A stretch of 34,516 nucleotides of DNA, from NCBI GenBank assembly GCA_034530615.2, contig JAVRCV020000035.1, positions 1 to 34,516 on the forward strand. Reading direction: 5' to 3'. The translations under genes and the position numbers were made by a program. The first letter of the stretch is position 1; each line of letters starts with the position of its first letter. Under the pieces are notes generated by a model that did not search any database, was not told the origin of the DNA, and was given only the letters and a program-made list of their open reading frames with translations. The stretch is from Aulosira sp. ZfuVER01 (lineage in GTDB: Bacteria > Cyanobacteriota > Cyanobacteriia > Cyanobacteriales > Nostocaceae). Positions 4,407 through 28,392 of this stretch are shown one piece after another.

Positions 4407-5405
4407 TTAGCGCACAGCATCTCCCCGACGATATTCAACAGTAATGTCGTCTAGTTTTTGTTTCAAACTGTCATCAAGTTTTAGTTCTACAGCCTTGAGG
4501 GTGTCTGCCAATTGTTCTGGACGGCTAGCACCAATAATCGGGGCAGTAATCACCGGATTAGCTAACACCCAAGCCAGTGCTAAGGTAGTCAGAGACACTC
4601 CAGCTAAATCTGCCACTGTACGTAATTCTTCAACAGTATTGAACTCGCGATCGCGCCAATATCTTTCTTGATAGCGTTCCGCCGCCGTACCCAAGGTAAA
4701 ACGAGTGCCTGCGGTGGGGCCTTGAGCAAGATTGTGTTTGCCAGTGAGTAAACCACCCGCCAAGGGATTGTAAGGAATTACACCCAATCCTTCTTCTTGC
4801 GCTAGGGGTAAAAGTTCTCGTTCAATTTCGCGGAATAAGAGATTGTAGCGAGGTTGAATCGAAACAAAGCGAGTCAAATTTCGCACATCGGCACGACCTA
4901 GAGCACGTGCAAGTCTGTATGCTAAGAAGTTAGAAACCCCGATATAACGTGCTTTACCTGTACGCACTACTGTATCTAATGCTTCTAGGGTTTCATCCAG
5001 AGGCGTTGAGGCATCGTCAGAATGCAATTGGTATAGGTCAACATAATCAGTTCCCAGTCGTCTGAGGGAAGCATCGATCGCATCAAGAATATGTTTGCGT
5101 GAAGCGCCTTGATCCCAAGGTGCCGGGCCAACCTTGCCTACAGCCTTGGTAGCTAAAATAAAATGTTCGCGTTTACCTTTGAGCCAGCGTCCCACAATTT
5201 CTTCAGTACGTCCAACTGTAGACAAGCCACCGCCAAGAGGATAAACGTCAGCTGTATCGAGAAAATTGATACCAGCATCGGCAGCAGTGTCGAGAATTTG
5301 CCTAGAAATTTCCTCGTCTGTCTGCAATCCGAAAGTCATTGTGCCAAGAGCAAGGCGCGAAACAGTCAATCCGGTTTGACCGAGTTTAGTTGTTGGTAAG
5401 CTCAT
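4407..5405 (-). CDS. Aldo/keto reductase
   Basis: LGTMTFG, GINFLDTADVY, ILATK, SLRRLGTDYVDLYQLH, YNPLAGGLLTGK, PIIGAS. Confidence 0.93.
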   Translation of the reverse strand: MSLPTTKLGQTGLTVSRLALGTMTFGLQTDEEISRQILDTAADAGINFLDTADVYPLGGGLSTVGRTEEIVGRWLKGKREHFILATKAVGKVGPAPWDQGASRKHILDAIDASLRRLGTDYVDLYQLHSDDASTPLDETLEALDTVVRTGKARYIGVSNFLAYRLARALGRADVRNLTRFVSIQPRYNLLFREIERELLPLAQEEGLGVIPYNPLAGGLLTGKHNLAQGPTAGTRFTLGTAAERYQERYWRDREFNTVEELRTVADLAGVSLTTLALAWVLANPVITAPIIGASRPEQLADTLKAVELKLDDSLKQKLDDITVEYRRGDAVR

Positions 5406-5455
5406 AGAGATGTTTCTTATATTCTGTACTTTATGTCATTAGTTGTGAGGGATTT

Positions 5456-5488
5456 AGATTCCCGAATTTTCTAAAAAGTTGGGAATCT
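5456..5488. repeat. Intergenic inverted repeat (stem-loop)
   Basis: AGATTCCCGAATTTT-CTA-AAAAGTTGGGAATCT imperfect palindrome between co-oriented genes. Confidence 0.55.
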
Positions 5489-5503
5489 TGCAGCCTAGTA
5501 TCC

Positions 5504-6154
5504 TCAGACAGCTACAGAAGTGCGGCGACTCTGTGAAATCAGCCATTGTTGCAATTTTGGGTCGCTGTATACTTCATCAGCAATAAAGTGATCGCCTTCG
5601 GGTATTAAAGTAAAATCTACTGTTCCCCCCAATCGGTGCAAGGTGTCCACAATTTGCTGTGTATCTTCAACAGAAAGCTTTTCATCCTTTCCACCTTGGA
5701 AGATTTGGATGGGAATTTCTTTGAGTGCAGCTAGTTGGCTTTCTTCTAATGTATTGGGAACACGACCTGACACCGCTACCAAACCAGCGAAGCGATCGCG
5801 ATGGGACGCAGCAATATGCCAAGCCCCAGCCGTACCTAAGCTGAATCCAGATATGATGACGCGGGACGGATCTATAGACCGGGAGGCGATAAAATTATCC
5901 AACAAAGCAATTACATCTGATTCTCGCTCTACCCAAGTCTGCCCTTCCGGAAGTTGAGGTGCTAAAAAGAAGTAAGGTAAGGCGCTTGATTCATTCACAA
6001 AACGTGGTAAACCCCATTTCAACAGCACATTTAAATCATTGCCGCGATCGCGTGCCCCATGCAAAAACAAAACTAGAGGAGCAGGTTTGTTACCATCTTC
6101 CCACACAGCCGAGAACAGATAAGGTAATAAACCAGAGCGCTTTTCGATAGGCAT
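5504..6154 (-). CDS. Alpha/beta hydrolase (phospholipase/carboxylesterase-like)
   Basis: LFLHGA oxyanion region, nucleophile elbow GFSLG, GGKD acid, GDH histidine. Confidence 0.85.
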   Translation of the reverse strand: MPIEKRSGLLPYLFSAVWEDGNKPAPLVLFLHGARDRGNDLNVLLKWGLPRFVNESSALPYFFLAPQLPEGQTWVERESDVIALLDNFIASRSIDPSRVIISGFSLGTAGAWHIAASHRDRFAGLVAVSGRVPNTLEESQLAALKEIPIQIFQGGKDEKLSVEDTQQIVDTLHRLGGTVDFTLIPEGDHFIADEVYSDPKLQQWLISQSRRTSVAV

Positions 6155-6282
6155 AGTTTTAATTCCTGTAATTACTGAAGCGTGTATTTGATTTAGGAAT
6201 TGGGGACTAGAAATTATCTAATCCCCATGTATGGCAAACGTCTCTAGATTTTGACCCGATTCCTTCAGACCTCTTTAGTGAT

Positions 6283-7821
6283 TTAAGCCACTACGAGGCT
6301 CTTATCTACTTGTGGAGATTCGATATTACCTATCTTAGATTCAATCGCCGTACCCTTGAAGAAGTCGGGGTGAGCTTGGGTGTAGAACTTGTAGGGATTA
6401 CCAAAGACATAAGCTTTAAAGTCAGCTTCGGAAATCACGCCTTCTTGCACCAGATCCCAGCTTTCTGCTAGAGGATCTGTCAGGTCGGGTACATCCCAAT
6501 GACCAACATCTGAGGAATAGATGGCGTTGATTTTCACACCCAAGGGATTGGCTTTGTCGTTAAATGCTGCGCCGATGGTGCGATCGTCGGACTCAGAGCC
6601 AAAGAAGAAACTATTCACCCAGCGATCGCGGATGTCTTCAATGGTTTCAATCCCAGCAGCAGCAAAGTCTTCTAGTTCGCTACCAACGGGCGAGCGACTA
6701 TGACGGTTGAAGGAAGAACCGAGTACAGATTTTGTGAGTTCTTCTTTAGTGAGTGGATGCGCTTTGAGGAATTCACTACCGAAACGCTCAAACAGCACAA
6801 ACAACTCATCCGGATTAGCGTTATCTGGATTGTAGTTTTGCAGTCCCTTGAGATTGCGCTTGGAGAAACGGTCTACCAAATGAATGTAGACGTGAGCGCC
6901 CCAATCTGCGCCACCTTCCAGCATAGCTACACGCAACTGTGGGAAACGCTTGGTAACACCACCAAAGAACAACGCCTTAGCGAATGCTTGGGAACCATCG
7001 GCAAAGTGACCGATGTGGTTGTTCATGTAGTTACTGATCGAGGAGCGTCCAGTCCAACCTTGGCTACCATAGTGGGTAGTAATGGGTACGCCTAATTCAA
7101 CAGCTTTCGCCCAGAATGGATCGTAGTCGTATTCACTATCCAATCCGTAAAAGTCAATGTAGGAAGCATACTTGGCGATTTCGGGGAATTGGTCTGCTGG
7201 ATACTTATCTGCGATCGCCTTAATTGGCCGTTTTACACCACCAGGAATATTTGCTACTTTTAATCCTAGTGTTTTTACAGCAAACTCTAGCTCCTCAATG
7301 GCTTCTTGAGGATTACCCATCGGGATACCAGCTACCACTGTCAGGCGATCGCTATATTTGCGATACAAGTCAGCATGATAGTGATTTACCGCCCGTTGCA
7401 GTGCTTGACGGTTCTCTTTACTTGCTCCTGCTGGTGCAAGAACATTGTTAGGAAACAGCACCGAATAATCAGATCCCTGCTCCGCCTGACGTTCATAGAA
7501 CAATTCTGGCAAAGTATAAGTTGCGAGATCCAATGTATTACGGGTTACTCTAGCCCACCAAGGGGAGCGAATTGTCCGGTTGTATTGGCGTTCTTCAGGA
7601 GTTTGTTGATACCAGTCTTTACCATTGCTCTTGGAGTTAAGACGAGAAGCTTCCGCCTTCCGCAATTCGTCTACGAGTTTGGAGCCACCGTAATTAGCAA
7701 TGTAATCCTCCAGCGCCGGAGTGAAATCATTGGTATGAACATCAGTATCAATGATTGGATAATCCAGAGTGGCTTTGATTGCAGCCGAACGAGAACTTTT
7801 CAATCTGCTATATTCAGTCAT
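6283..7821 (-). CDS. Amidohydrolase family protein (Amidohydro_2-like), paralog A
   Basis: IIDTDVH metal motif, YDPFWAK, TTH, LEGG, SSDVGHWD; ATG at 7821 preceded by AAGGA RBS (track ORF starts at TTG 7836). Confidence 0.85.
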   Translation of the reverse strand: MTEYSRLKSSRSAAIKATLDYPIIDTDVHTNDFTPALEDYIANYGGSKLVDELRKAEASRLNSKSNGKDWYQQTPEERQYNRTIRSPWWARVTRNTLDLATYTLPELFYERQAEQGSDYSVLFPNNVLAPAGASKENRQALQRAVNHYHADLYRKYSDRLTVVAGIPMGNPQEAIEELEFAVKTLGLKVANIPGGVKRPIKAIADKYPADQFPEIAKYASYIDFYGLDSEYDYDPFWAKAVELGVPITTHYGSQGWTGRSSISNYMNNHIGHFADGSQAFAKALFFGGVTKRFPQLRVAMLEGGADWGAHVYIHLVDRFSKRNLKGLQNYNPDNANPDELFVLFERFGSEFLKAHPLTKEELTKSVLGSSFNRHSRSPVGSELEDFAAAGIETIEDIRDRWVNSFFFGSESDDRTIGAAFNDKANPLGVKINAIYSSDVGHWDVPDLTDPLAESWDLVQEGVISEADFKAYVFGNPYKFYTQAHPDFFKGTAIESKIGNIESPQVDKSLVVA

Positions 7822-7937
7822 GTTTTTTTCCTTCAAAAGTTACAACCTAGTTTCACTGTCATGGAAATGGGCATAGGCCATTTGTCTAAAGTTATTACTT
7901 ATTTCTTTCTCCCCCTGCTCCCTGCCCCTCTGCCTCC

Positions 7938-9302
7938 TTAAGCCAACACCAATCTCTCATCCTCTTGTTTGACAGCGAATTGATTACCCGGACGACGCAG
8001 CCCCAGGTTTTCCCGCAAGGTAGTACCTTCATATTCAGTCCGGAACAAACCTCGCTTTTGGAGGATGGGAACGACTAGATTAACGAAGTCATCCAATCCT
8101 GTAGGCAAGATGGGTGGCATGATATTGAAACCATCTGCTGCACCGTTGTTAAACCATTCTTCTAGTTGATCGGCAATACTTTCGGGAGTACCAAGTATGG
8201 TGCGATGACCCCGTGCAGTAGCCAGAGACAGATACAACTGACGCAATGTGAGATTACCGCGAGTAGCTAGATCCTTAACCAGTTTCAGACGACTTTTGTT
8301 ATTGTTAGTATCGCTGGGTAATTCCGGAGCCAAATCATCTAGAGAGTATTTCGACAGATCCACACCTTTGTAATAGTTCCGCAAAATACCCCAAGCCACA
8401 TCGGGATGAATCAATGATTGGAGAAATTCATATTTCTCTTGAGCTTCTTCCTCTGTACGGCCAATAATTGGGAAAGCTCCAGGCATGATTTTCAAATCAT
8501 CTGGCGATCGCCCATATTGCGCTAGTCTACCTTTGATGTCAGCATAAAATTCTTGAGCATCGGCTAGGGTTTGATTGGCAGTGAAGATTACCTCAGCAGT
8601 ACGCGCAGCTAAATCTCGTCCAGCTTCCGAGGCTCCAGCTTGCACAATCACCGGGTAGCCTTGAGGCGGACGACCGACGTTCAAGGGGCCTTTGACGGAA
8701 AAATGCTTACCTTTGTGGTTGAGTATATGCAGTTTTTCCGGCTCGAAATAGACACCAGATTCTCTGTCACGGATGAAGGCATCGTCTTCCCAACTATCCC
8801 ACAGACCTTTTACAACTTCCACAAACTCTTCCGCGCGTTCATAACGCTGGCTGTGTTCTGGATGATGTTCAAGACCAAAATTAGCTGCGGCGTTTTCATT
8901 ACCTGTGGTGACTACATTCCACCCTGCGCGGCCTTTACTTAAGTGATCCAAAGAAGCAAACTTACGAGCCAAGGTATAGGGTTCTTCGTATGTAGTCGAG
9001 GCGGTGGCAATAAAGCCGATGTTTTTGGTGACAGAAGACAAAGCAGAAAAGAGTGTAACTGGCTCAAAATGGACAAGTTTACCATTGCGTTTTTGAGTCT
9101 CTGGTGCGCCACCCCAAACTCCTGGACTGTCAGCCAGAAACACTGCATCGAACAAACCACGTTCGGCAGTTTGGGTAATTTCTTTGTAATGTTCAAAATT
9201 GAACCCAGCGTCTATTTGTGCGTCTGGGTGTCGCCATGCAGAAACGTGATGTCCAGTAGCTTGAATAAATGCACCTAAACGAAACTGGCGTTTTTTGCTC
9301 AT
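7938..9302 (-). CDS. LLM-class FMNH2-dependent monooxygenase, NtaA/DmoA/SnaA family
   Basis: AWRHP, AERGLFDAVFLAD, STTYEEPY.LARKFASLDHLSKGRAGWNVVT, QAGAS..GR.LAA, GAADGFNIMP, TLRENLGL. Confidence 0.93.
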   Translation of the reverse strand: MSKKRQFRLGAFIQATGHHVSAWRHPDAQIDAGFNFEHYKEITQTAERGLFDAVFLADSPGVWGGAPETQKRNGKLVHFEPVTLFSALSSVTKNIGFIATASTTYEEPYTLARKFASLDHLSKGRAGWNVVTTGNENAAANFGLEHHPEHSQRYERAEEFVEVVKGLWDSWEDDAFIRDRESGVYFEPEKLHILNHKGKHFSVKGPLNVGRPPQGYPVIVQAGASEAGRDLAARTAEVIFTANQTLADAQEFYADIKGRLAQYGRSPDDLKIMPGAFPIIGRTEEEAQEKYEFLQSLIHPDVAWGILRNYYKGVDLSKYSLDDLAPELPSDTNNNKSRLKLVKDLATRGNLTLRQLYLSLATARGHRTILGTPESIADQLEEWFNNGAADGFNIMPPILPTGLDDFVNLVVPILQKRGLFRTEYEGTTLRENLGLRRPGNQFAVKQEDERLVLA

Positions 9303-9399
9303 CTACTTTTTTCTCTTTTCTTTCGCTCAATTTAGTTAACTGTTGAAATATCACACCAGAGAAAGAGCAAGTAAATAACTCTCTTTCACTCTCTGCGTT

Positions 9400-10221
9400 T
9401 TAATGTTTCCAAACTACTTGAATTGTGGCTTTGAGTTCTTCTTTAAACTCTCCAGAAGGCTCAACTGCTAGTAACGCTTCTTTGATATCTGCTTCAAATT
9501 CTTCGGCTTTGTCGCCATAGAAAATTTTCAGAGAGAAGGCTGTGGTATATAAGTAGCCAAGGTAGCTGGAGACTGTCCAGGATTTTTCAAATGGCACTTC
9601 ATATACTTCTTGGCGGGCAAATTTTGAATTGGCAATTACAAATTCATGAGGAGGATCGACTGGTTTACGAACAGCTTGTCCTCGTTGTCCAGTTCTTCGT
9701 TCTTCACCTAACCATTTTTTCACTACTCCAATAGCAGCTTGTTTCCAGGGTAAAAAACTTTTCCAAGGATCGTCGCCTGTATTAAGCAGTGCGATCGCAC
9801 CATCATCTGCAAGCAATTCATAAAGGCGTTCAAGTACAAGTTCGCGTTCCATCCAATGGAAGGCTCTGCCAATGGTAGCTAGTTTGAATACCCCTAAACT
9901 AGGGTTAATCAGTTCTGCGCCTTGTTCTAGCCAAGTTATATTATTTGCTCCTACGGCTGCTGCTTGGCGTTGTGCTTCTTTGAGCATCTCCGGATCGGGA
10001 TCTACCGCCACTACTTGCTGAAATTTGGTTCTAAGAGCAATAGCAATTAAACCTGGCCCAGTACCCAAATCCAGCAGTCGTCCCTGACCATTAAGATTAA
10101 ATATTTCGGTTAGTTTGTCAAATACGGTAGGTGGATATTTAGTTCTGTATTGAGCGTAGACTTCAGCTGCACCCTCAAATAATGTTGGGTCATAAGTTGG
10201 GAGTGTTTTTAGTTGGGTCAT
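9400..10221 (-). CDS. Class I SAM-dependent methyltransferase
   Basis: Motif I LLDLGTGPG, VVAVDPDPEML, AFHWM. Confidence 0.9.
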   Translation of the reverse strand: MTQLKTLPTYDPTLFEGAAEVYAQYRTKYPPTVFDKLTEIFNLNGQGRLLDLGTGPGLIAIALRTKFQQVVAVDPDPEMLKEAQRQAAAVGANNITWLEQGAELINPSLGVFKLATIGRAFHWMERELVLERLYELLADDGAIALLNTGDDPWKSFLPWKQAAIGVVKKWLGEERRTGQRGQAVRKPVDPPHEFVIANSKFARQEVYEVPFEKSWTVSSYLGYLYTTAFSLKIFYGDKAEEFEADIKEALLAVEPSGEFKEELKATIQVVWKH

Positions 10222-10529
10222 AATTTGATTTTGTCGAGTCTCTAAAAATCACTAGCGATCGCTGATGATTAACAACCCAGTTAGCAATATCGCGGAATAT
10301 CAGTAAAAAGTTGTCGCTGCTTAATCTAGGCGTGAAATTCCAACTCTTATTCTCTGTATTTGTTCGCCTTAGGAATGCTTTTGTTCTCTGTCACAACTGT
10401 TCGTACAGCGTTCTCTAAGAGTAGGCGCTTTCTTAAGACCATTAGCTCCAAACTGAAGACACAGGTTCTGGTTTGCGTCCTCTTTGGTCAGCGAGCGAGT
10501 GCAATGCTGTGATGTATTTTCTCTCAAAA

Positions 10530-10555
10530 TACTATAACTTGATTGATTTACCGTA
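10530..10555 (-). promoter_or_regulatory. Putative operator TAC-N20-GTA, copy 1
   Basis: Minus strand TACGGTAAATCAATCAAGTTATAGTA, upstream of the methyltransferase-monooxygenase operon. Confidence 0.75.
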
Positions 10556-10703
10556 TTTTGTTCTTAACAAAGCTTTTCACACTTACAAACAAAATGCAAG
10601 TCCTGCTTAACACAAGTTTGCCAAGAGATTTTTCATCAAAATCTATTTTAAGAGGGTTGTGTTTTTGCCTAAATTATGCAAATATCCAGAATTAAGAGTT
10701 AAC

Positions 10704-10729
10704 TACTAAAAACCGATAAAGTTTTAGGA
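10704..10729 (+). promoter_or_regulatory. Degenerate operator copy 2, upstream of porin
   Basis: TACTAAAAACCGATAAAGTTTTAGGA (TAC-N20-GGA) flanked by TTAAC...GTTAA. Confidence 0.45.
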
Positions 10730-10986
10730 GTTAATGACTGGCAGTCAATAATTAGGCTAATTCAAGTTCTTAAAAGAGCATTATGCTATGTTGCACCTCT
10801 GTTATCTTGTGCATAATCTTTTAATACGATTTAGCCGTTGCAAAAGCTGTTTGTCAAAAACCTCTATAAGGCAGTTTATCTGAGAAATATTTGTCTTCAA
10901 AACTAAGTGCGATCGGGACGTAAAAATCCTGTGGGGTGTTAGCAATTTCAAGATTTGTTGATTTTCAGTGCATAACTCGATAACCA

Positions 10987-12762
10987 ATGTTTAAAGTTTT
11001 GTGGAATTCAGGGCTAGTTAGTCCAGCCCTTTTTAATGTATTTTTTATCCTGTCTTCAGCCGCACTTGCTGAAGCATCGGACTTACCCAGGCTAAAATCA
11101 GGGATTGAGGAAATTTCCCCAATTATTACAACTCAGCCTAAATCGAATCAAACTGCCAACCCAGAAGTAACCGAAACGCCAGACTATTTACGATCCCCAG
11201 AAGGAAGTCTACTTTCCGAGGAGACTTTAACAGATGAAGATAACTCCCTAGATCAAGTTAATTCGGTTTCGCAATTATCTGATGTTCAGCCTACAGATTG
11301 GGCATTTCAAGCATTGCAATCTTTAGTGGAACGCTATGGTGCGATCGCGGGTTATAAAGATGGTACATTCAAAGGGAATCGCGCTCTTACGCGCTATGAA
11401 TTTGCGGCTGGCTTAAATACTGCTTTAGACCGAATCAATCAAATAATCGCCAGTTCTACAGCAGACTTAGTTAAAAAAGAAGACTTAGACACAATTAACA
11501 AGCTAAGAGAGGAATTTTCCACAGAATTAGCTGCACTACGAGGAAGAGTTGATGCAGCAGACGCAAAACTGGGAGTCATTGAAGCACAACAATTTTCGAC
11601 TACAGTTAAACTCACAGGTCGAGTCCAGATTGTCCTAGGTTCACTTCTAGCCGGTAATAATGTTCTCACTGGGAAGCCAGCACCCCGCGTAACCACACTC
11701 CAAGATTCAGTCTCCTTGCGATTGAATGCCAGCTTTACAGGTAAAGATTCACTAGGCATCTCAATGGGAGGTGGAAGTATTCAATCATTGGGACAAACAA
11801 GAGCTGGATTATTGGGTACTTTTGATGGCAGAACTGCTGATAACGCCAATGTTACAAGACCAGCCAATGATTGGTCTATTACTGGTCTGCGTTATCGGTT
11901 TCCATTAGGTTCAAATACCCAAGTCAACATTTACGCCTTATCTGATGGAGCTAATGAACTAGGTTTTACAGTACCAATTAATCCATACTTTGAAAGTACT
12001 CTAACAGGCGGTGCTAATGGGATTTCCCGATTCTCACGACGAGCTTTAGTCTATCAATATGGAGATACTGGTGGTGGAATAGCGGTACTCCACAAATTAA
12101 ATGACCAGTTTCAAATAGGATTAGCTTACAGCGCACCTAATGCTAATAACCCTGGACAGAATAATGGCTTCTTAGAAGGCAGATATTTAGCTTTAGGTCA
12201 GATACTATATACCAGTCCTAAGAAGAATTTTCGCGCGGCTCTAGCTTACGTCAATACTTACAGTCCACCAAACGCCCAAGGTCTAAGTGGTACCAACTTT
12301 GGGCCAGCCGCCGGCAGCAACTTGGTTAATAGCACCGTGGCTGGAACCGGAACGGTAGCTAATCTTTATGGTTTACAAGCTTTTTATCAATTTAGTCCCA
12401 GGTTTGCTATCAATGGTTGGGTAAGTTATGGTGCACACCGCTATTTAGGACGTGGCGATGGCAGCGCTATGGATTGGGCGGTAGGACTTGCTTTCCCAGA
12501 TCTTGGAAAGAAAGGAAGTTTAGGAGGATTGTTTGTGGGTATGTCACCAAAACTTACCCGTCTCAGCCAGGGTGTAAATTTAGGAGCGGGCTTAGGACAA
12601 GCAGACAAAGATACCTCCTTGCATATTGAAGGATTCTATCAATATAGAATCACCGATAAGATTGACATTACGCCGGGTTTTATCTGGGTGACTGCACCAG
12701 ATTCAAACGCCAACAACCCTGATAGCTTATTTGCATGGATTCGTACTGTCTATAGGTTTTAG
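10987..12762 (+). CDS. Cyanobacterial outer-membrane porin, SLH + OprB-type barrel (SomA/'iron uptake porin' family)
   Basis: SVSQLSDVQPTDWAFQALQSLVERYG SLH region, QFSTT.KL.G, HIEGFYQYRI.D.I.ITPG, C-terminal Phe. Confidence 0.93.
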   Translation: MFKVLWNSGLVSPALFNVFFILSSAALAEASDLPRLKSGIEEISPIITTQPKSNQTANPEVTETPDYLRSPEGSLLSEETLTDEDNSLDQVNSVSQLSDVQPTDWAFQALQSLVERYGAIAGYKDGTFKGNRALTRYEFAAGLNTALDRINQIIASSTADLVKKEDLDTINKLREEFSTELAALRGRVDAADAKLGVIEAQQFSTTVKLTGRVQIVLGSLLAGNNVLTGKPAPRVTTLQDSVSLRLNASFTGKDSLGISMGGGSIQSLGQTRAGLLGTFDGRTADNANVTRPANDWSITGLRYRFPLGSNTQVNIYALSDGANELGFTVPINPYFESTLTGGANGISRFSRRALVYQYGDTGGGIAVLHKLNDQFQIGLAYSAPNANNPGQNNGFLEGRYLALGQILYTSPKKNFRAALAYVNTYSPPNAQGLSGTNFGPAAGSNLVNSTVAGTGTVANLYGLQAFYQFSPRFAINGWVSYGAHRYLGRGDGSAMDWAVGLAFPDLGKKGSLGGLFVGMSPKLTRLSQGVNLGAGLGQADKDTSLHIEGFYQYRITDKIDITPGFIWVTAPDSNANNPDSLFAWIRTVYRF

Positions 12763-12811
12763 GGACGATCTCGATAGATATGGAGTGAGATTCTCTGTCG
12801 TTAACCTACCA

Positions 12812-12877
12812 GGTGTTGCTGAATGATAGGACGATTTCGCCCAATTTGAAACGAATTCCCCGCATTTATGCAACGCC
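12812..12877. repeat. Small element with terminal inverted repeats (MITE/REP-like)
   Basis: GGTGTTGC...GCAACGCC ends in the intergenic region after the porin. Confidence 0.45.
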
Positions 12878-13169: not shown

Positions 13170-13182
13170 CTTGATCGTAAAC

Positions 13183-13208
13183 TACGGTAAGTTGATCGAT
13201 TTACAGTA
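13183..13208 (+). promoter_or_regulatory. Putative operator copy 3 (best palindrome)
   Basis: TACGGTAAGTTGATCGATTTACAGTA, 150 nt upstream of ssuC. Confidence 0.8.
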
Positions 13209-13358
13209 TTTTATAGAAGAGTACGCCAAACAATGATGTAACTTCTTTAGTTTATTCCTATGTATACCCGCGTAAAACTAAGATAAATCTCACATATTGA
13301 GTCCTATTGGCGAAATTACCGTCAATGAGAACTTTATAAAACAACTAACGAGTACCTC

Positions 13359-14180
13359 ATGACTACTACTCTCAATAGAATCAACAGCAATATATTTCCG
13401 AAAGCGTTACTACAAAGCCAACTAATTCAGAAGATAGTTCCTTGGATTGTACCTTTTACAGTAGTGGTACTATGGGAAATTGCTTCAAGAACAGGTTTAC
13501 TTTCAACCAGAATTTTACCTGCGCCAAGTAGCGTGGTTTTTACAGCATTTAGATTAGCCTCTACAGGAGAACTTTTTCAACATATAGGGATTAGTGCTGG
13601 ACGTGCATTATCCGGTTTTATAGTTGGTGGTAGTATTGGTTTTGCCTTGGGATTACTTAATGGTTTTTCCCCAGTCGCCGAAAAATTATTAGATAGTTCC
13701 TTACAAATGCTCCGTACAATCCCCAATTTGGCATTGATTCCTCTAGTAATTTTATGGTTTGGGATTGGCGATCAAGCTAGATTATTTCTAGTATCAATGG
13801 GGGTATTTTTTCCCATATACCTCAATACATTTCATGGGATTCGCAGCGTAGATCCTGGATTAATTGAAATGGGAAGAGTGTATGGTTTAAAAACTACAGA
13901 GCTTTTGTGGCAAATCATCTTCCCTGGCGCATTATCTTCGATTTTAGTTGGTGTGCGTTTTTCTTTGGGAATTATGTGGCTCACACTAATTGTGGCAGAA
14001 ACAATTGCTGCCGATTCAGGACTAGGTTACATGGCAATGAATGCCCGTGAGTTTATGCAAACTGACGTGGTAGTTTTAAGCATTTTTATCTATGCTTTGT
14101 TGGGTAAATTAGCAGATGCTACCGCTAGGGCTTTAGAAGCCAAATGTCTGGCGTGGCATCCTAATTATCAAAGTGCTTGA
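13359..14180 (+). CDS. ssuC: Aliphatic sulfonate ABC transporter permease
   Basis: RILPAPS, QMLRTIPNLALIPLVILWFGIG, LTLIVAETIAADSGLGYMAMNAREFMQTDVVV match SsuC. Confidence 0.93.
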   Translation: MTTTLNRINSNIFPKALLQSQLIQKIVPWIVPFTVVVLWEIASRTGLLSTRILPAPSSVVFTAFRLASTGELFQHIGISAGRALSGFIVGGSIGFALGLLNGFSPVAEKLLDSSLQMLRTIPNLALIPLVILWFGIGDQARLFLVSMGVFFPIYLNTFHGIRSVDPGLIEMGRVYGLKTTELLWQIIFPGALSSILVGVRFSLGIMWLTLIVAETIAADSGLGYMAMNAREFMQTDVVVLSIFIYALLGKLADATARALEAKCLAWHPNYQSA

Positions 14181-14227
14181 AGAAGGTAGAAAAAAATAAT
14201 CTTTACTTGAACTAGGAGAATATCTTA

Positions 14228-14998
14228 ATGATTGCTACGGAAAGAGGTACACATCTCAATATTTTGGATCTGACTAAGGCTTTTAATGGTAACAATGTTT
14301 TGAAGTCAGTCAATTTAGAAATAGCACCAGGGGAATTTGTCGCCATTGTGGGACGTAGTGGTTGCGGTAAAAGCACTTTACTACGTCTTGTTTCTGGGTT
14401 GGATAGACCAACTGCGGGGGGAATATTACTAGATGGAGAACCACTACGTAAACTGAGCCGTTCTGTAAGGGTGATGTTTCAAGATCCCCGATTGCTTGCA
14501 TGGAAGCGAGTGATTCAGAATGTGGGCTTGGGTTTGCAAAACAATTGGCGTGAAAGAGCGCAGTGGGCACTGGAACAAGTGGGATTGAAGGATAGAGCCA
14601 ATGAGTGGCCATCTATACTTTCTGGTGGACAAAGACAACGGGTGTCTCTAGCCAGAGCATTAGTAAGCCAACCACGTTTATTGCTGCTTGATGAACCTCT
14701 GGGCGCTTTGGATGCTTTAACTCGCATAGATATGCAGGGATTGATTGAACGGTTATGGCAAGAACAGGGTTTTACTTCCCTGTTGGTAACTCATGATGTG
14801 GAAGAAGCTGTAGCGTTAGCAGACAGAGTAATTTTGATTGAAGAGGGTAGGATTGCTCTTGATGTACGTGTAGATCTTCCTCGTCCACGCGATCGCGCTA
14901 GTGAAGTCTTTGTTAATATCCGGGAAACTGTTCTTGAGCGCGTTATGCATCGTGAAGTTGCTCACTCCAGTCATCAGTTATTGGAATTACATCGTTGA
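14228..14998 (+). CDS. ssuB: Aliphatic sulfonate ABC transporter ATP-binding protein
   Basis: [58 protein letters not shown]; follows ssuC. Confidence 0.92.
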
Positions 14999-15644: not shown

Positions 15645-16373
15645 TCAACTTTGAATACTACTATTATTAACGTAAGCATTTTCAGTTAATAACGGTACAC
15701 AATCGCTGATATTAAAAGCTGCGGCTAATTCAACATCAAATTCAAAATCTTTGGCAATTAATTCTTTTCCAGAACTGCATTGTTTTAAGTGTGTTAGTAA
15801 CGTTTTCTGACAAGCCTGAAATGCTGCTACAGCAGTTTCCGCTTCTGGAGATAAATTACCATCCAAGTAACTCAAGATTGCCCCAGCGCCAATTAAATCT
15901 TCAAAAGATGGGCGCAATGTACCATCTTCCCACTTTTCGCCAGCAGGAATTACTGCAATTTTAGATCCATATTTTTGAGCGAATTTTGCAACTGCTTCAC
16001 AGTTTCGCAAGCAACCAGCGATAGTAGGAGTTTTACCTGTCAACAATGTTAGAGAGGAACCATTTGGAGATGGTACAACCAGCTTAGTTCCCGCCGAAAT
16101 TTTACTTAGAGATGCTGGAGAAAGTGAATAACCATCTTGAGACAAACGACTTTTGCATAATTCTGCTTGTACAGAGTTGGCATAATCTAGTGCAGAATCA
16201 TCCCGCCATTGATATGGGTAAATAATTGCACCATTATTTGTCGCAATCTCTGTTGCAGTCGAGAAAGATAAAACATCGACTATAACAACAACATCACTAA
16301 TTGGTGCAAGTTGAGAAACACCTTTTGCACCCCATTCACAGCGTAGATTAAATTCTGCTTGGTCATAAATCAT
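15645..16373 (-). CDS. 2-phosphosulfolactate phosphatase family protein (ComB-like)
   Basis: VVIVDVLSFST, SLSP, SPNGS, GCLRN, IPAGE, EDLIGAGAI. Confidence 0.85.
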   Translation of the reverse strand: MIYDQAEFNLRCEWGAKGVSQLAPISDVVVIVDVLSFSTATEIATNNGAIIYPYQWRDDSALDYANSVQAELCKSRLSQDGYSLSPASLSKISAGTKLVVPSPNGSSLTLLTGKTPTIAGCLRNCEAVAKFAQKYGSKIAVIPAGEKWEDGTLRPSFEDLIGAGAILSYLDGNLSPEAETAVAAFQACQKTLLTHLKQCSSGKELIAKDFEFDVELAAAFNISDCVPLLTENAYVNNSSIQS

Positions 16374-18644: not shown

Positions 18645-18745
18645 TTTATCTAAGTTTTAGATATTCTTAAATTTATAAATACATATATTTTGTTTGCTAA
18701 GTGCTTGTGCTGTAACTAGGGCTGTGTAATAATACTAAATTAATC

Positions 18746-18771
18746 TACGATAACTTGGTAGACAAATAGTA
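18746..18771 (+). promoter_or_regulatory. Putative operator copy 4
   Basis: TACGATAACTTGGTAGACAAATAGTA, just downstream of TTGTGC-17 nt-AATAAT (18705-18733). Confidence 0.7.
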
Positions 18772-18936
18772 TTTTTAGCAAAAGTACTGCATAGACAGAG
18801 CAATCAGTTGAGATTAGCAACGCGAATACAGTAATAACACTCTGGTTGATATCGGGTTTTGAGTCTTGATTTTTGCTTGGTCGTCGTTGACGACTTGTAA
18901 AAATCAACGAGTCATATTAGCTATGGAGACGTAATC

Positions 18937-20672: not shown

Positions 20673-21722
20673 ATGAACATTGGATTTAAACAAACAAAAA
20701 TTAATATATTCCAGAAATTTTCATTCTTGCTTTTACCTGGATTATTAGCTATTTCGACAACGTTAATTAGCTGCTCAGTTGACACACCAACTACAGAAAA
20801 TAAATCAAAAAGCTTTACAGCAAAAACTATCCGTTTGGGATATCAAAGTGCTGGAGACCTAGTTAAACTAAGAGGAGGCATAGAAAAGCGTCTGCAACCC
20901 TTAGGTGTTTCCGTTGAATGGGCACAATTTGCAGCAGGCCCACAATTAATGGAAGCGATGAATGTAGGTAGAGTTGATATTGGCTCTGTTGGCGAAACTC
21001 CTCCTATATTTGCTCAAGCCGCTGGGACATCTTTAGTTTATATTGCTAGTAGACAACCGGGGACAGGCGAAAGTAGCGGTATTGTAGTTCAACAAAATTC
21101 ACCAATTAAAACTTTGGCTGACCTTAAGGGTAAAAAGATAGTTTTTCAAAAAGGTTCAGCTTCCCATTACTTATTAGTTAAAGCTTTAGAAGAAGCAGGT
21201 TTGAAATATAATGATATTCAAGCTCTAAGTATGCCCCCATCCGAAGCGCGTGGTGCTTTTATTCAAGGGCGAATTGATGCTTGGGTAACGTGGGACCCTC
21301 ATTTAGCTTTAGCACAGAAAGCAGCCAATGCTAGAGTCTTGAGAAATGCTAGTGGTATCGCTACGCAAGGTGGATATTACATGGCTTCACGTCAGTTTGC
21401 TATAGAAAATCCAGAATTGGTGCGATTAGTGCTGGAAGAGGTAGATAAGGTAGAGAAATGGGCTGAACAAAACCAATCTGAAGTTGTCAAAATAACCACT
21501 CCTCAACTCAAAATTGATGAAGATATCGTCAAAGAAATGATTAAAAGACGAAGCTACGGCTTAAGAGCAATTACTCCAGAAATTATGGCAGGACAACAAC
21601 AAATAGCAGATTTATTCGCCCAGGAAAAAGTAATTCCTAAACCAATTGATGTAAAAGAAGCAATGCTGACTACTGAGCAATATGCAGCTATTACACCTAA
21701 AACCATAATTAGCCAGAAATAA
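20673..21722 (+). CDS. ssuA: Aliphatic sulfonate ABC transporter substrate-binding lipoprotein (SsuA family), second copy
   Basis: Lipobox LISC; FAAGPQLMEAMNVG, GETPPIFAQAAG, QKGSASHYLL, DAWVTWDP. Confidence 0.87.
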   Translation: MNIGFKQTKINIFQKFSFLLLPGLLAISTTLISCSVDTPTTENKSKSFTAKTIRLGYQSAGDLVKLRGGIEKRLQPLGVSVEWAQFAAGPQLMEAMNVGRVDIGSVGETPPIFAQAAGTSLVYIASRQPGTGESSGIVVQQNSPIKTLADLKGKKIVFQKGSASHYLLVKALEEAGLKYNDIQALSMPPSEARGAFIQGRIDAWVTWDPHLALAQKAANARVLRNASGIATQGGYYMASRQFAIENPELVRLVLEEVDKVEKWAEQNQSEVVKITTPQLKIDEDIVKEMIKRRSYGLRAITPEIMAGQQQIADLFAQEKVIPKPIDVKEAMLTTEQYAAITPKTIISQK

Positions 21723-24182: not shown

Positions 24183-24541
24183 TGAAAGAAAATAGCATCA
24201 TCACTGGTTTTCATGCTCATATCTACTACGATACCGAAACTCGTGACATTGCTGGCCGTATCCGCGAAGGATTAGAAGCTAGATTTGAAGTACGGCTGGG
24301 ACGCTGGCACGATCAGTCCATTGGCCCCCATCCAAAATCTATGTATCAAGTTGCCTTTGCGCCAAACCAATTTACGCAAGTCGTCCCTTGGTTAATGCTC
24401 AACCGTGAGGGATTAGATATTCTCGTCCATCCAGAAACAGGCGATGATGTCACAGACCATACAGCATACGCTCTGTGGCTAGGAAATAAGCTAGATTTAA
24501 ACATCGGTTTCCTACAACGAATCAGACCTAACGCTTCCTAA
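24182..24541 (+). CDS. DOPA 4,5-dioxygenase family protein
   Basis: FHAHIYY, IGPHP, LVHPETG...DHT..ALWLG; start overlaps the SDR stop (TAATG). Confidence 0.88.
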   Translation: MKENSIITGFHAHIYYDTETRDIAGRIREGLEARFEVRLGRWHDQSIGPHPKSMYQVAFAPNQFTQVVPWLMLNREGLDILVHPETGDDVTDHTAYALWLGNKLDLNIGFLQRIRPNAS

Positions 24542-25206
24542 TTACGCTTGCGTGCTAAAGTCAGTCCATCTGCGATCGCAATCAAACTCAAGTCTATGCG
24601 ATCGTCTTGAGATAGCTTACTGTTGAACTCACGAATAGCTAAAGTAGAGGAGTCTTCTATTTCCGGCTGAATCACTCTTCCAGACCACAGCACATTATCA
24701 ATAGCAATCAAACCACCAGGTCGCACCAACTTTAATGCCAGTTCGTAATAACGATAATAGTTTTCCTTATCAGCATCAATAAAAGCAAAGTCAAAAGTTT
24801 CTGCATGACCTTGTGTTAAAAGATACTCTAAAGTCTCTGTTCCTGGAGCCAGCCGCAAGTCAATTTTATCAGCCACACCTGCTTTCTCCCAGTAGCGACG
24901 AGCAACAGATGTAAACTCTTCACTCACATCACAGGCAATAATCTGACCATCAGGCGGTAATGCTAAAGCAACACTCAAAGAACTATAACCAGTGAAAACG
25001 CCTACTTCCAAAGTTTTCTTTGCACCAATTAGCTTGATCAAGAGTGCCAAAAACTGTCCTTGTTCCGGCGCAATTTGCATATTTGCGCGAGGATGGTGAG
25101 CAGTTTCTTGTCGTAACTGCAAAAGTACTTCTGGCTCGCGTAGTGATACAGACAAAAGATACTCGTACAAATTAGTTGTCAGATTTAGTGTTTTCCCAGT
25201 AGACAT
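24538..25206 (-). CDS. O-methyltransferase (caffeoyl-CoA OMT-like)
   Basis: LEVGVFTGYS, FDFAFIDADKENY, IDNVLWSG, DGLTLA. Confidence 0.93.
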   Translation of the reverse strand: MSTGKTLNLTTNLYEYLLSVSLREPEVLLQLRQETAHHPRANMQIAPEQGQFLALLIKLIGAKKTLEVGVFTGYSSLSVALALPPDGQIIACDVSEEFTSVARRYWEKAGVADKIDLRLAPGTETLEYLLTQGHAETFDFAFIDADKENYYRYYELALKLVRPGGLIAIDNVLWSGRVIQPEIEDSSTLAIREFNSKLSQDDRIDLSLIAIADGLTLARKRN

Positions 25207-25234
25207 ACTTTTTCAGCTCTTGTATTTGCGGCTT

Positions 25235-25315: not shown

Positions 25316-25340
25316 TACCTATATGAATATTCTAACAAAA

Positions 25341-25366
25341 TACGGTAAATTGCCCGACTTTATGTA
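25341..25366. promoter_or_regulatory. Putative operator copy 5
   Basis: TACGGTAAATTGCCCGACTTTATGTA in the divergent OMT/GST region. Confidence 0.7.
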
Positions 25367-25607
25367 GTATTGCTTTTACTTATAGCTTGAATCTCAGTAT
25401 GTTAACCAAGTATTACCTATCCGATTTATATAGATTGTGTTGTTCATCTTGAGATTTGTTAAGGTTTCTGGCATCTTCATCTAGAATCAGGCTTTGAGTA
25501 CATTATGGGATCTCTTTGTTGACAAGCCTAATTCTGTCTAGATATTTATTTAGTTATGCTAATAGTTAGGTATACATATTTTCAGAAAGACTGTATGATA
25601 TCTAAAC

Positions 25608-25633
25608 TACGTTAAATCGACCGATAAAGCGTA
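25608..25633 (+). promoter_or_regulatory. Putative operator copy 6
   Basis: TACGTTAAATCGACCGATAAAGCGTA, 8 nt after -10-like TATGAT (25594-25599), upstream of the GST operon. Confidence 0.72.
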
Positions 25634-25779
25634 ATATATCATCTAACAGACGTAGATACTTACTAGTCAAATTATTTAACTGCACTAATCAACACATCTT
25701 GCCTCTGCCTTATTTCTCTGGTTTGAGTTGTGCAATCTCAAATAGTCTGCATTCACGATAATTCCAAGGAAAGGATTTT

Positions 25780-26451
25780 ATGAGCAACATACAACTGTAC
25801 TTTGCCAAAGCTTCTACCTTCTCTCAACGTACTCGTGTAGTTTTGCTAGAAAAAGGTATTGACTTTACCCCAATAGAAATTGATTTACAGAACAAACCAG
25901 ATGGGTACACACAGATTTCCCACTATGGCAAAGTTCCGGCTATTCAACATGGGGATGCGATCGTCTATGAATCTGCCATTATTAATGAATATCTAGAAGA
26001 AGTGTTCCCCGAACCGGCGTTATTACCCCGCGATCCGGCAAAAAAAGCGATCGCTCGCATTTGGATAGACTACGCCAATACTCGCTTTGTCCCAGCTTTT
26101 AACAAATTTCTCCGTGGTAAAGATAGCGAAGAACAAGAACAGGGAAGAAAAGAGTTCACAGAAGCACTTCTATATATTGAACAAGAAGGATTAGGCAAAG
26201 GTGATTACTTGTTAGGAGATCGGTTTAGCCTAGTTGATATCAGCTTCTATCCCTGGTTTGAACGTTTACCACTATTAGAACACTTCCGTAAATTCGCACT
26301 ACCAACAGAAACACCTCGTTTGCAGACATGGTGGAATTTGGTAAGCGATCGCTCCTCAATTCAGACAGTAGCAAATCCTGTGGACTTCTATTTACAAAGA
26401 TTCGCCAAAATTCTTGGTGAACCGATTCCCGTTGGTGCAGCGCAAAAATAA
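25780..26451 (+). CDS. Glutathione S-transferase family protein
   Basis: [28 protein letters not shown]-capping box. Confidence 0.92.
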
Positions 26452-26536
26452 GACACAAGGGTGTGGTGATGGGAGTGAATCATTAACTGTTGAGTATTGA
26501 CCAACAATTAACCAAAATCCAAAATGGGATGTTTTT

Positions 26537-27409
26537 ATGAGCTTAAATAACCAAGTTCTAGACAGACCGATTTCGCAAGAACTGCCATACGTAAAGGCTA
26601 ACCTCAGTTACCTAATTCCAATGGCAGAAAAACCAGTTAACTATACCTACGAACCACCCACCGGGATTCCTTGCACAAATGGAACTTATCAGACGCATAA
26701 ACTCCCCATCTACAACGCTCGTTCTATCTCAGAGAACATCTCGTTGGATAAAGAAGGTTTTGCGTTTACTGAACATCGCACCAGCGTCCGCAACTTTTAT
26801 GACGAAGACGAAGTACGCCGTGTTTATTACCCAGAAGCCGAGCAATTATTAAAAGAGGTGACAGGCGGAACTAAGGTAGTAATCTTCGACCATACCCTAC
26901 GTAACGCTGCTCAATCAAAGCCGGGTGAGAATAACATTAAAGAACCTGCCAAGCGCGTACACAACGACTTTACTGCCAAATCTGGCTATACTCGCGCCCG
27001 TTTGGAACTAACAGCACGAGGGATAGATGATAACGAAATTGAGTCACTATTACAACAACGGTTTGCCATAGTTAATGTTTGGCGCGCGATCGCTCAACCA
27101 ATCCAAGAGTCACCATTAGCATTGTGTGACGCGCAAAGTATTGCATCAACAGACCTTGTATCAGGCGATCTTGTGTACCGCGATCGCGTCGGTGAGACAT
27201 ACGCAGTCACGTATAACCCCGAACATAAATGGTTCTACTTCCCACAAATGCACCCAGACGAGGCACTATTTATCAAATGCTTCGACTCCGCAGAAGATGG
27301 ACGCGCCCGTTTTGCAGCCCATACAGCCTTTGAAGACCCCACTAGCCCAGCCGATGCTCCCCCACGAGAAAGCATTGAACTCAGGACATTCGTCTTTTAC
27401 CCCGCATAG
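26537..27409 (+). CDS. CmcJ/NvfI/AsaB-family putative Fe(II)/2-oxoglutarate oxygenase
   Basis: FDHTLR, VHND (HxD), NVWR, PLALCD, HTAF, RESIELR. Confidence 0.8.
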   Translation: MSLNNQVLDRPISQELPYVKANLSYLIPMAEKPVNYTYEPPTGIPCTNGTYQTHKLPIYNARSISENISLDKEGFAFTEHRTSVRNFYDEDEVRRVYYPEAEQLLKEVTGGTKVVIFDHTLRNAAQSKPGENNIKEPAKRVHNDFTAKSGYTRARLELTARGIDDNEIESLLQQRFAIVNVWRAIAQPIQESPLALCDAQSIASTDLVSGDLVYRDRVGETYAVTYNPEHKWFYFPQMHPDEALFIKCFDSAEDGRARFAAHTAFEDPTSPADAPPRESIELRTFVFYPA

Positions 27410-27477
27410 ATTTCTCCATCTCTCACTCTTTGCGCCTCTGCGTGAGAAAAATCCACATTTAACCTAGAGTAAACCCC

Positions 27478-28392
27478 ATGACTTCCCAACATTTTGATAT
27501 CAAACCAATAGCCGGACGTATCGGTGCAAAAATCATCGGTCTTAACCTAAACAGTAACCTCAGCGACGAAATCATCAGCGATATCCGTAAAGCTCTAGTT
27601 AAATACAAAGTCATCTTCTTCCGGGAGCAGAACCTTGATGCTCAAGGACAAGTAGCCTTCGCCCGTCGCTTCGGAGAAGTCACCACAGCTCATCCCACCG
27701 TCCCATCACTTCCAGACAACCCAGAAATTCTGGATCTAGATTACGGCAAGACTGTCAGCCGCGCTAACAACTGGCACACCGATGTCACATTTGTAGATCG
27801 TCCCCCGCTTGGTTCGATTTTGCGGGCACTTGTCATCCCACCATCAGGAGGTGACACTATTTGGGCAAACTCGGTGACTGCATACGAAGATTTACCAGAG
27901 CCTCTACGTAATCTCGCAGACCAACTTTGGGCAATACACAGCAACGCCTATGATTATGCAGCAGCGGCAATTGACTTACCACAAGAAGTTTTAGCACATC
28001 GGGCTGTTTTCACCTCGACTTTATACGAAACTCTGCATCCAGTTGTCCGCATCCATCCTGAATCTGGTGAACGAGGATTATTTATTGGTGGTTTTGTGCG
28101 GCGTCTGCGTGGATTATCACAAAATGAATCCGATGAAATCATCAAATTGTTGCAGGCTTACATAACTCGTCCCGAAAATACAGTCCGGTGGCGTTGGAAA
28201 GTTGGCGATGTAGCTTTCTGGGATAATCGCGCTACTCAACATTATGCGATCGCAGACTACGGAAACCAACCTCGTCATGTTCAGAGAGTGACTATTGTTG
28301 GCGATATTCCCGTTGGTATTGATGGTAAACAAAGTGAAGCCATCAAGGGAGATTCTTCTGCATATAACCGACGTGAACCTGCTTTAGTTTAG
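27478..28392 (+). CDS. tauD: TauD/TfdA family dioxygenase (taurine dioxygenase or alkylsulfatase AtsK-like)
   Basis: WHTDVTF, GGDTIWA, HPVVRIHPESGE, WDNRATQHYA. Confidence 0.88.
   Translation: MTSQHFDIKPIAGRIGAKIIGLNLNSNLSDEIISDIRKALVKYKVIFFREQNLDAQGQVAFARRFGEVTTAHPTVPSLPDNPEILDLDYGKTVSRANNWHTDVTFVDRPPLGSILRALVIPPSGGDTIWANSVTAYEDLPEPLRNLADQLWAIHSNAYDYAAAAIDLPQEVLAHRAVFTSTLYETLHPVVRIHPESGERGLFIGGFVRRLRGLSQNESDEIIKLLQAYITRPENTVRWRWKVGDVAFWDNRATQHYAIADYGNQPRHVQRVTIVGDIPVGIDGKQSEAIKGDSSAYNRREPALV

Follow-up and report, generated by a model that had tools for sequence, protein, structure and literature searches.

The Aulosira locus

The 34,516-nucleotide stretch of DNA from the cyanobacterium Aulosira sp. 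ZfuVER01 analysed here (contig JAVRCV020000035.1; hereafter the window) contains a block of five genes, for a methyltransferase, a flavin monooxygenase, an amidohydrolase (amidohydrolase A), an esterase-like hydrolase and an aldo-keto reductase (AKR), whose products contain no cysteine and few methionines, and which is preceded by a 34-bp palindrome that recurs elsewhere in the genome ahead of genes for sulfur acquisition. Family scans of the window revealed two SsuA-type binding proteins, ssuC, an ssuB-like ATPase, a TauD-family dioxygenase and an NtaA/DmoA-family monooxygenase, accompanied by two Amidohydro_2 proteins, an esterase, an AKR, an SDR, a GST, two methyltransferases and a porin; the closest named relatives of the window genes are Nostocales. 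Judged from these predicted functions, the window is an organosulfur-scavenging gene island (Table 1). Genes throughout the 8.0-Mb genome were called with a simple hexamer-trained caller, which returned 6,274 genes whose starts are uncertain.

Cysteine and methionine in the island

The five-gene block (4407–10221) encodes 1,787 amino acids with no Cys and eight internal Met, as an earlier reading of the DNA (the sequence-only reading) had claimed. Against the proteome background of 0.93% Cys and 1.49% internal Met (all Met counts given here are of internal residues), 16.5 Cys and 26.5 Met would be expected, corresponding to binomial probabilities of 6e-8 and 2e-5 for a block that was chosen after the fact. 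It is also the sulfur-poorest of the 4,475 overlapping five-gene windows of the genome, only four of which are Cys-free. A recount agreed that the esterase, GST and TauD proteins contain neither residue and the SDR only a single Met. To these can be added the porin, Cys-free with three Met, which had been overlooked; over the span 4407–28392, 10 of 22 genes encode Cys-free proteins, and SsuC, amidohydrolase B, the CmcJ-like protein and an MFS protein are ordinary or mildly low. Two of the earlier statements hold only in part. The SsuA proteins do retain a single Cys each, but with six and seven Met they are not sulfur-poor overall; and ComB and the GNAT acetyltransferase, with seven and five Cys, are indeed not depleted, but the latter cannot serve as an outside control, because its gene starts 8 bp past the AKR stop codon on the same strand and so sits in the predicted operon.

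Table 1. Features of the window (C, cysteines; M, internal methionines; aa, amino acids; scores in bits are those of the palindrome matrix unless a family model is named)
Feature	Position	Strand	Remarks
SsuA-family sulfonate-binding lipoprotein 1	928..1989	-	C1/M6; TIGR01728 above cut-off
ABC exporter, 624 aa	2080..3954	-	C4/M7; not depleted
GNAT acetyltransferase	3956..4399	-	C5/M4; within predicted operon; sporadic passenger, in 5/80 related loci
Aldo-keto reductase (AKR), 332 aa	4407..5405	-	C0/M1
Alpha/beta hydrolase (esterase-like), 216 aa	5504..6154	-	C0/M0
Amidohydrolase A (Amidohydro_2), 512 aa	6283..7821	-	C0/M3
NtaA/DmoA-family FMN (LLM) monooxygenase, 454 aa	7938..9302	-	C0/M2; TIGR03860 625 bits, cut-off 280
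Class I S-adenosylmethionine (SAM) methyltransferase, 273 aa	9400..10221	-	C0/M2
Palindromic site ahead of five-gene operon, core TAC-N20-GTA 10530-10555	10526..10559	.	34.9 bits; one of 7 seeds
Second palindromic site, closer to divergent porin gene	10700..10733	.	24.6 bits; from scan, not seed
SLH/OprB porin, 591 aa	10987..12762	+	C0/M3
Palindromic site before ssuC-ssuB	13179..13212	.	41.3 bits, genome's top score
ssuC (C1/M7) and ssuB-like ATPase (C1/M3)	13359..14998	+	not depleted
ComB-family phosphatase	15645..16373	-	C7/M0; no site; outside regulon
Palindromic site before amidohydrolase B	18742..18775	.	30.0 bits
Amidohydrolase B, 495 aa	18937..20424	+	C3/M3; 50% identity to A
SsuA-family lipoprotein 2	20673..21722	+	C1/M7
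SDR, 249 aa	23433..24182	+	C0/M1; no site directly upstream here
O-methyltransferase	24538..25206	-	C1/M1
Palindromic site before O-methyltransferase	25337..25370	.	28.7 bits
Palindromic site before GST-CmcJ-TauD	25604..25637	.	29.1 bits
GST-fold protein, 223 aa	25780..26451	+	C0/M0
CmcJ/NvfI-family oxidoreductase	26537..27409	+	C3/M2, only mildly low; NF041278
TauD-family dioxygenase, 304 aa	27478..28392	+	C0/M0
Two palindromic sites between BLH-phosphatase-like and CadD-family genes	31049..31123	.	cores 31053, 31094; 29.1, 21.5 bits

Elsewhere in the window, at 29586–30240, a gene for a HAD-family hydrolase is apparently broken into two short frames; a similar gene on contig C27 (22599–23276), beside EamA, is whole.

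A 34-bp palindrome ahead of sulfur genes

A genome-wide correlation with the bare motif TAC-N20-GTA had been suggested as a test, but the intergenic count of this motif, 364, falls within the range for other spacings (281–405). Given this lack of enrichment it was dropped as a predictor and replaced by a matrix covering the full 34 bp, grown from seven intergenic instances in the window, with the consensus AAAcTACgGTAA-n-TCGATCGA-n-TTACcGTAgTTT. At a threshold of 14 bits the matrix marks 57 intergenic sites in the genome and one or two in two Markov controls; the only site called inside a gene lies before a CRP gene with a probably mis-called start. Genes downstream of the palindrome include three copies of sbp, cysT/W, two copies of cysA, cysE, rrf2-cysK and ssuD, and further targets are a DszC/SfnB-like oxidoreductase, sulfatases, TauD, TauE and NIL genes. 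Sites are likewise found before an sbp gene that has a phosphate-transporter-like operon behind it (G000:C54:26607-31615, L008), before a LysR regulator (C56:53291-54226), before a GTP cyclohydrolase I gene (C27:12097-12735), and before NIL-domain genes with a selenium-binding/methanethiol-oxidase-like gene (C49:114308-116374). An identical site with the start of ssuA occurs at both G000:C55:102270 and C27:5992, reflecting either a recent duplication or an assembly repeat.

The palindrome is not confined to this genome. A pattern version gave 9–22 matches in eight of 17 same-family genomes, where the reversed-pattern control gave 0–1, and 2–6 matches in the other nine, some of them at control level. 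In matrix scans it precedes sbp in 23 of 29 cyanobacterial loci, a count which includes the locus of this genome and omits one (L196) whose upstream region is cut off. It is present, too, at the cysA-sbp promoter of genome G053, where the gene order cysA / sbp-cysT-NIL-CRP-cysW is presumably that of the cysR region of Synechococcus elongatus. On the S. elongatus plasmid pANL, four of the top five matrix matches (8.6–16 bits) precede operons of the sulfur region: rrf2, cysK-cysE-srpI-cyd, an ABC operon and one for carbonic anhydrase and catalase. In 50 shuffles the best match averaged 3.0 bits and reached at most 10.7. Since SrpI is induced by sulfate starvation (PMC8049743), the palindrome before the srpI operon provides a link to experiment.

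Depletion follows the palindrome across the genome

Regulon membership was assigned purely by position: the site had to score 18 bits or more and lie no more than 500 bp away, and operon gaps could not exceed 150 bp. The 75 soluble proteins so defined contain 0.68% Cys and 0.96% Met, against 0.97% and 1.44% elsewhere, or about 30% less (0.70x and 0.67x, the other 18 residues ranging from 0.93x to 1.16x). None of 5,000 length-matched resamples was as low, four parameter sets agree, and the difference remains when this contig is left out (p=3.8e-4). Among cytoplasmic-like proteins the corresponding values for Cys and Met combined are 1.79% and 2.62% (p=5e-6). Comparison with the proteome, as the sequence-only reading had recommended, thus upholds a sulfur-specific depletion that follows the full-matrix palindrome genome-wide. 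In four other genomes, 39 proteins encoded behind a site contain 0.52% Cys and 1.16% Met, against 0.97% and 1.60% in 29 controls (p=0.019); in two of these four genomes a site stands immediately ahead of the SDR orthologue (L239, L242).

High expression was considered as the cause of the depletion and rejected: Cys+Met is still 2.19% in the 300 proteins that rank highest in coding score per codon, and by this crude proxy regulon genes are close to the rest (0.339 against 0.322).

Two further observations concern composition. The esterase, amidohydrolase A and monooxygenase (window 5504–9302) end in similar hydrophobic tails, SVAV, LVVA and LVLA, such tails being found in three of 67 regulon proteins and 23 of 3,973 others. 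A third cpcBA operon with linkers (G000:C36:175776-179681) encodes subunits with no internal Met and two and one Cys, the other cpcBA copies having C3/M6 and C2/M1-2; by its predicted products it is a cpc3-like sulfur-starvation phycocyanin operon.

Family controls

The sequence-only reading would have been undermined by equal depletion of family homologues outside sulfur contexts. Depletion goes beyond the family background for AKR, SDR, GST and O-methyltransferase. For amidohydrolase A, the esterase, TauD and the LLM monooxygenase no control from a non-sulfur context was found; the distant relatives of amidohydrolase A are themselves nearly all Cys-free. The AKR gives the clearest picture. 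Two such genes in the genome with a site encode proteins of 0.6% Cys+Met, and 12 without a site proteins of 2.5%; relatives of at least 60% identity also have 2.5%; and among 150 distant representatives (median 10 Cys+Met) none of 107 near-full-length alignments has one or fewer. Family Cys positions 19, 157 and 202 are here Ala, Val and Ala. Paralogues without a site are similarly richer in sulfur for the SDR, GST, O-methyltransferase and porin: an O-methyltransferase paralogue 73% identical and lacking a site has C2/M3 against C1/M1, and all nine porin paralogues without a site hold two to four Cys. All four TauD and all three NtaA-type (LLM) paralogues are Cys-free, so that these two families offer no in-genome control.

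Replacement of sulfur residues had also been read from individual motifs. This is borne out for the AKR, where LCLGTM is the most frequent form among the distant representatives (25, against five with LALGTM), and for the methyltransferase motif DLGTG, since 19 of 37 non-regulon matches carry Cys in SAM motif I and four carry Thr. For the esterase, APQL or APQI is the norm in 115 of 119 homologues and GFSLG in 118; of these same homologues (62–96% identity) 104 contain neither Cys nor Met. An esterase orthologue is also present in T. variabilis ATCC 29413 (P0408).

Substitution patterns among present-day homologues of the five genes point the same way for Met. Distinct substitutions to Met make up 0.44%, against 1.96% in 90 control genes, and replacement of Leu, Ile, Val or Phe by Met accounts for 10 of 557 against 95 of 1,670. 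Amidohydrolase A is Cys-free in all 80 cyanobacterial orthologues and in 34 of 36 close relatives. Among the distant relatives, gene context was read for one, from Variovorax. It stands in an ABC-TauD operon in which sulfur residues make up 0–0.2% of the binding proteins and soluble enzymes, against 1.2–3.2% in the upstream neighbours, so that the amidohydrolase A family looks tied to sulfur scavenging throughout. Methyltransferase orthologues, present in 21 of 80 related loci, are Cys-free in 20, and in G053 the gene is flanked by an SsuC-like permease gene and a DszC-like gene.

The operon in related loci and its possible chemistry

The operon was tallied in at least 80 related cyanobacterial loci, in which the monooxygenase is found in 76, the amidohydrolase in 80, the esterase in 62 and the AKR in 66. 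The palindrome occurs somewhere in the locus in 50 of the 80; by promoter class, the palindrome stands alone in 38 and a different element alone in 25, while 10 loci combine the two and seven have neither. This second conserved element precedes the operon, upstream of the monooxygenase gene, in 35 of the 80 loci (L125-L176), and consists of an AT-rich LysR-like box, then TGTG-N8-(C/T)ACA and, after some 22 nt, TAnnnT, a layout which we take to be of the CRP/NtcA type. In this genome its upstream half alone occurs once, before a flavoprotein gene (G000:C27:50430).

The best solved relative of the monooxygenase is Bacillus subtilis YtnJ (E 3e-124), with DszA also close; YtnJ we take to be CmoJ. 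CmoJ cleaves the C–S bond of a sulfoxide to give an aldehyde and a sulfenic acid (PMC10863075). By analogy the monooxygenase would cut the C–S bond of an imported organosulfur compound, the AKR would reduce the aldehyde released, and the hydrolases would remove an acyl group. Such a pathway of C–S cleavage, aldehyde reduction and deacylation is a tentative lead only: an AKR and two hydrolases would suit it, but the other Cmo partners (CmoO, CmoI, SnaA, SndA) are not among the annotated families of the window. Amidohydrolase A matched solved structures only weakly (E 2e-5 or worse). In a broader sense, the operon found in at least 80 loci is likely to constitute an organosulfur-scavenging pathway of freshwater and soil cyanobacteria.

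Candidate regulators of the palindrome

Three Rrf2 paralogues are encoded in this genome, the family being recognised by PF02082 and TIGR00738 above cut-off. The palindrome is found at 15 of 17 loci of the type-A rrf2 gene, which lies beside cysK and cysE; type-A Rrf2 as the only binder was nevertheless rejected, since genomes in which type B is the only kind carry sites too. The Rrf2 C-terminus is MYYI in all 30 loci read, 25 of which have a cysK-like match. This end aligns with the MFYI end of the CymR-like structure 3lwf, and the second-best solved match is B. subtilis CymR. The proteins lack the Fe–S cysteine triad of IscR and have a single Cys. Because they miss the cut-off of the CymR model they are termed CymR-like here, not CymR.

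Of 23 sbp promoters, 10 have a -35/-10 pair that ends 6–22 nt upstream of the site, where shuffles average 1.3 with a maximum of 5 and the reverse strand gives 1. In 16 of the 23 the site is followed within 13 nt by a word resembling a ribosome site, a count made without a control. A site so placed, between putative promoter and ribosome site, would suit a repressor. Spacing appropriate for an activator, with the -10 ending 34–70 nt after the site start, was seen in one of 23 sbp promoters, the shuffle level. In the window, the site before ssuC-ssuB has a sigma70-like -35/-10 that ends 9 nt upstream; a sigma70 scan of 10200–13400 was uninformative, with seven matches and 7.2 expected. In the mechanism proposed, a CymR-like Rrf2 repressor would sense cysteine through CysK. 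With cysteine in good supply it would occupy the site, between promoter and ribosome site, and it would leave the DNA once cysteine became scarce.

The other candidate is a CysR-like protein of the CRP family (G000:C49:263406-264125, L067). It ends in W-x-Y-x-I, as do all 26 aligned sequences, although the homologues in G053 and G110 lack this tail; such a tail is found in nine proteins of the genome, four of which are the CysR-like protein and the three Rrf2 proteins. The invariance of W-x-Y-x-I suggests docking to CysK. The predicted contact between the CysR tail and CysK scored 0.47, against 0.00 for the best control, which lends weak support only. The runs, made with their own alignments, agree in at least 69% of contacts, with a partner pLDDT of at least 73; on the scale of this prediction, the cases reaching the mark at 0.60 or below were 18 of 157 solved complexes and both of the passing mismatches among 215. 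Solved CysK-peptide complexes may account for the score. In G086 just the last 47 codons of a CysR-like gene are left (G086:C1:5287252-5287392, L220), a remnant which suggests loss in that genus.

Weighing the explanations

The reading we prefer, at a probability of about 70%, is that soluble sulfur-poor enzymes encoded behind a shared palindrome are made in sulfur starvation and kept sulfur-poor by selection, with the palindrome as the operator of a CymR-like Rrf2 protein. It builds on the observed counts, the palindrome and its target genes, and their association across this genome and its relatives. The near-absence of sulfur residues, taken with a palindrome shared with sulfate-uptake genes, makes the enzymes likely sulfur-starvation proteins. 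Their induction by lack of sulfur is very probable, sulfur economy is probably the selective cause of the depletion, and an Rrf2 protein is the somewhat favoured binder of the palindrome.

A number of results weigh against this reading. The 19 membrane proteins of the regulon are not depleted (2.61% against 2.47%), and the regulon is bimodal, with about half of its members not depleted, among them SsuD (C1/M6) and several flavoproteins; the sulfur-rich GNAT lies within the operon itself. Low sulfur content, which the sequence-only reading had held to mark abundant sulfur-starvation proteins independently, was rejected as a stand-alone marker because only 16 of 97 proteins of at least 200 amino acids and at most 0.4% Cys+Met are members; given the 13-fold enrichment of such proteins among the cytoplasmic-like part of the regulon, composition supports membership and by itself does not identify it. 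Cys has reappeared in 38 of 64 AKR orthologues, and substitutions to Cys in the five-gene set are not clearly suppressed (0.64% against 0.73%). In the related loci, 25 of 80 have the different promoter element in place of the palindrome, and depletion is equal with and without a site within 1.5 kb (32 and 45 loci, a few of the latter having a site farther upstream). No palindrome above 3 bits was found in 11 kb at the cpc3-like operon. The palindrome is found at none of 13 type-B rrf2-cysK loci, the Rrf2 proteins score 92.9 bits against a cut-off of 195 for the CymR equivalog model NF047409, and the repressor geometry is not significant at the sites of this genome (6 of 55, shuffle mean 4.8). 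The matrix, moreover, was refined on the very sites counted, gene starts come from a simple caller, and the related genomes are not independent.

The most serious alternative, though an unlikely one, accepts the sparing and holds that CysR binds the palindrome, the rrf2 genes being mere targets. The palindrome occurs at 20 of 22 CysR-clade loci, directly before the gene in G000 and G089, and in G053 the CysR-clade gene sits within the cysA / sbp-cysT-NIL-CRP-cysW cluster. In S. elongatus CysR is the regulator of sulfate transport genes (PMC12016511, PMC11420160), controlling the sulfate permease genes and srpA (PMC11420160). Yet G104 and G002, two genomes with rrf2-cysK in which no CysR-clade gene was found (best matches 33–39% identity), carry the palindrome ahead of sbp or cysA. 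Conversely, in G150, which has a CysR gene and whose only Rrf2 is an unrelated one, no site was found in 17 kb around the CysR gene, a stretch which ends inside sbp so that the sbp promoter is unseen. The location of the site downstream of the -10 in sbp promoters also argues against CysR, and the conserved C and G of the palindrome are 21 bp apart, exceeding the 16-bp width of a CRP box. The inner (G/T)GTAA-N10-TTAC(C/A) resembles instead the Rrf2 core TGTAA-N9-TTACA (PMC9218516).

It is improbable that the depletion is simply a family trait of horizontally acquired enzymes which sulfur economy does not uphold here. Amidohydrolase A relatives outside the cyanobacteria are Cys-free in 81 of 83 cases, the TauD and NtaA-type paralogues are uniformly so, and the indifference of depletion to the palindrome among related loci would follow naturally; however, substitution to Met is suppressed among present-day homologues, AKR relatives of at least 60% identity have 2.5% Cys+Met, and the Variovorax ABC-TauD and G053 SsuC/DszC contexts indicate that these families are themselves tied to sulfur scavenging. 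Still less probable is avoidance of damage by peroxide, sulfite or aldehydes arising from the monooxygenase chemistry. Cys and Met can both be oxidised, and oxygenases are among the most depleted members, but other oxidation-prone residues are not lowered (Trp 1.13x, Tyr 1.08x, His 1.16x, Phe 1.10x), depletion is just as strong in the porin and in the Sbp proteins of the periplasm, and several flavoproteins of the regulon retain many Cys and Met.

Relation to known systems and significance

Elemental sparing was reportedly described by Mazel and Marliere (1989) for the cpc3 phycocyanin of Calothrix/Fremyella, and Baudouin-Cornu (2001) and Fauchon (2002) are said to have treated such sparing, including that of sulfur. 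Sulfur sparing is known for the phycocyanin of Calothrix/Fremyella, sulfur-assimilation enzymes, yeast and Rhodococcus IGTS8 (PMC4357790, PMC2940859, PMC8557817). The phenomenon reported here is this known elemental sparing, of which it is a strong further case: scavenging proteins are poor in Cys and Met, and a cpc3-like operon is also present in the genome. It differs in extending across a motif-defined regulon, in being bimodal and restricted to soluble proteins, and in including accessory enzymes of unassigned function. Sulfur sparing being textbook knowledge, the composition alone is a clear example and not a discovery; what is added is that sulfur-poor composition tracks a definable operator.

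In Firmicutes, CymR acts with CysK as a cysteine sensor (PMC2940859, PMC6522883). The Rrf2 proteins here resemble the CymR-CysK system of B. subtilis and Staphylococcus aureus (PMC2940859) in lacking the Fe–S triad, in the M-Y-Y-I tail and in having cysK as neighbour, and the long palindrome likewise precedes genes for cysteine synthesis and organosulfur use. The likeness is qualified by the shortfall against the CymR model and by the presence of three paralogues. The targets also overlap with the CysR regulon or iModulon of S. elongatus PCC 7942 (sbp, cysA/T/W and the sulfur region of pANL; PMC11420160, PMC12016511), but unlike that regulon the palindrome occurs also where no CysR was found, and at sbp promoters in a putative repressor position. 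A 2024 paper describes the CysR regulon of cyanobacteria as still undefined in structure (PMC11420160). Among titles and the opening parts of abstracts, no account was found of the palindrome or of a cyanobacterial CymR-like regulon; subscription journals and regulon databases such as RegPrecise lay outside the scope of this search, and older papers may describe the motif. With the palindrome, its targets and two candidate regulators to hand, the question of the CysR regulon becomes directly testable.

For the operon, the nearest parallel is the S-alkyl-cysteine salvage operon of B. subtilis, snaA-tcyJKLMN-cmoOIJ-ribR-sndA (PMC10863075, PMC10221552), with which it shares a YtnJ-related monooxygenase, hydrolases and an enzyme of aldehyde reductase type. 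It differs in that CmoO, a glutaredoxin, a cystine transporter and an M20 deacetylase are not annotated, and GNAT is only sporadic. Operator and composition together point to the conserved operon as a likely organosulfur-scavenging pathway.

A wider possibility, somewhat less likely than not, which draws in part on the modelled contact, is a sulfur master switch common to the cyanobacteria as a class, in which a CymR-like Rrf2 would act on the palindrome and CysK, as the sensor of cysteine, would dock to the terminal-Ile tails of both Rrf2 and CysR. If that were true, operator and sulfur-poor composition would assign dozens of orphan enzymes to organosulfur-scavenging pathways, including the amidohydrolase A family shared with Proteobacteria.

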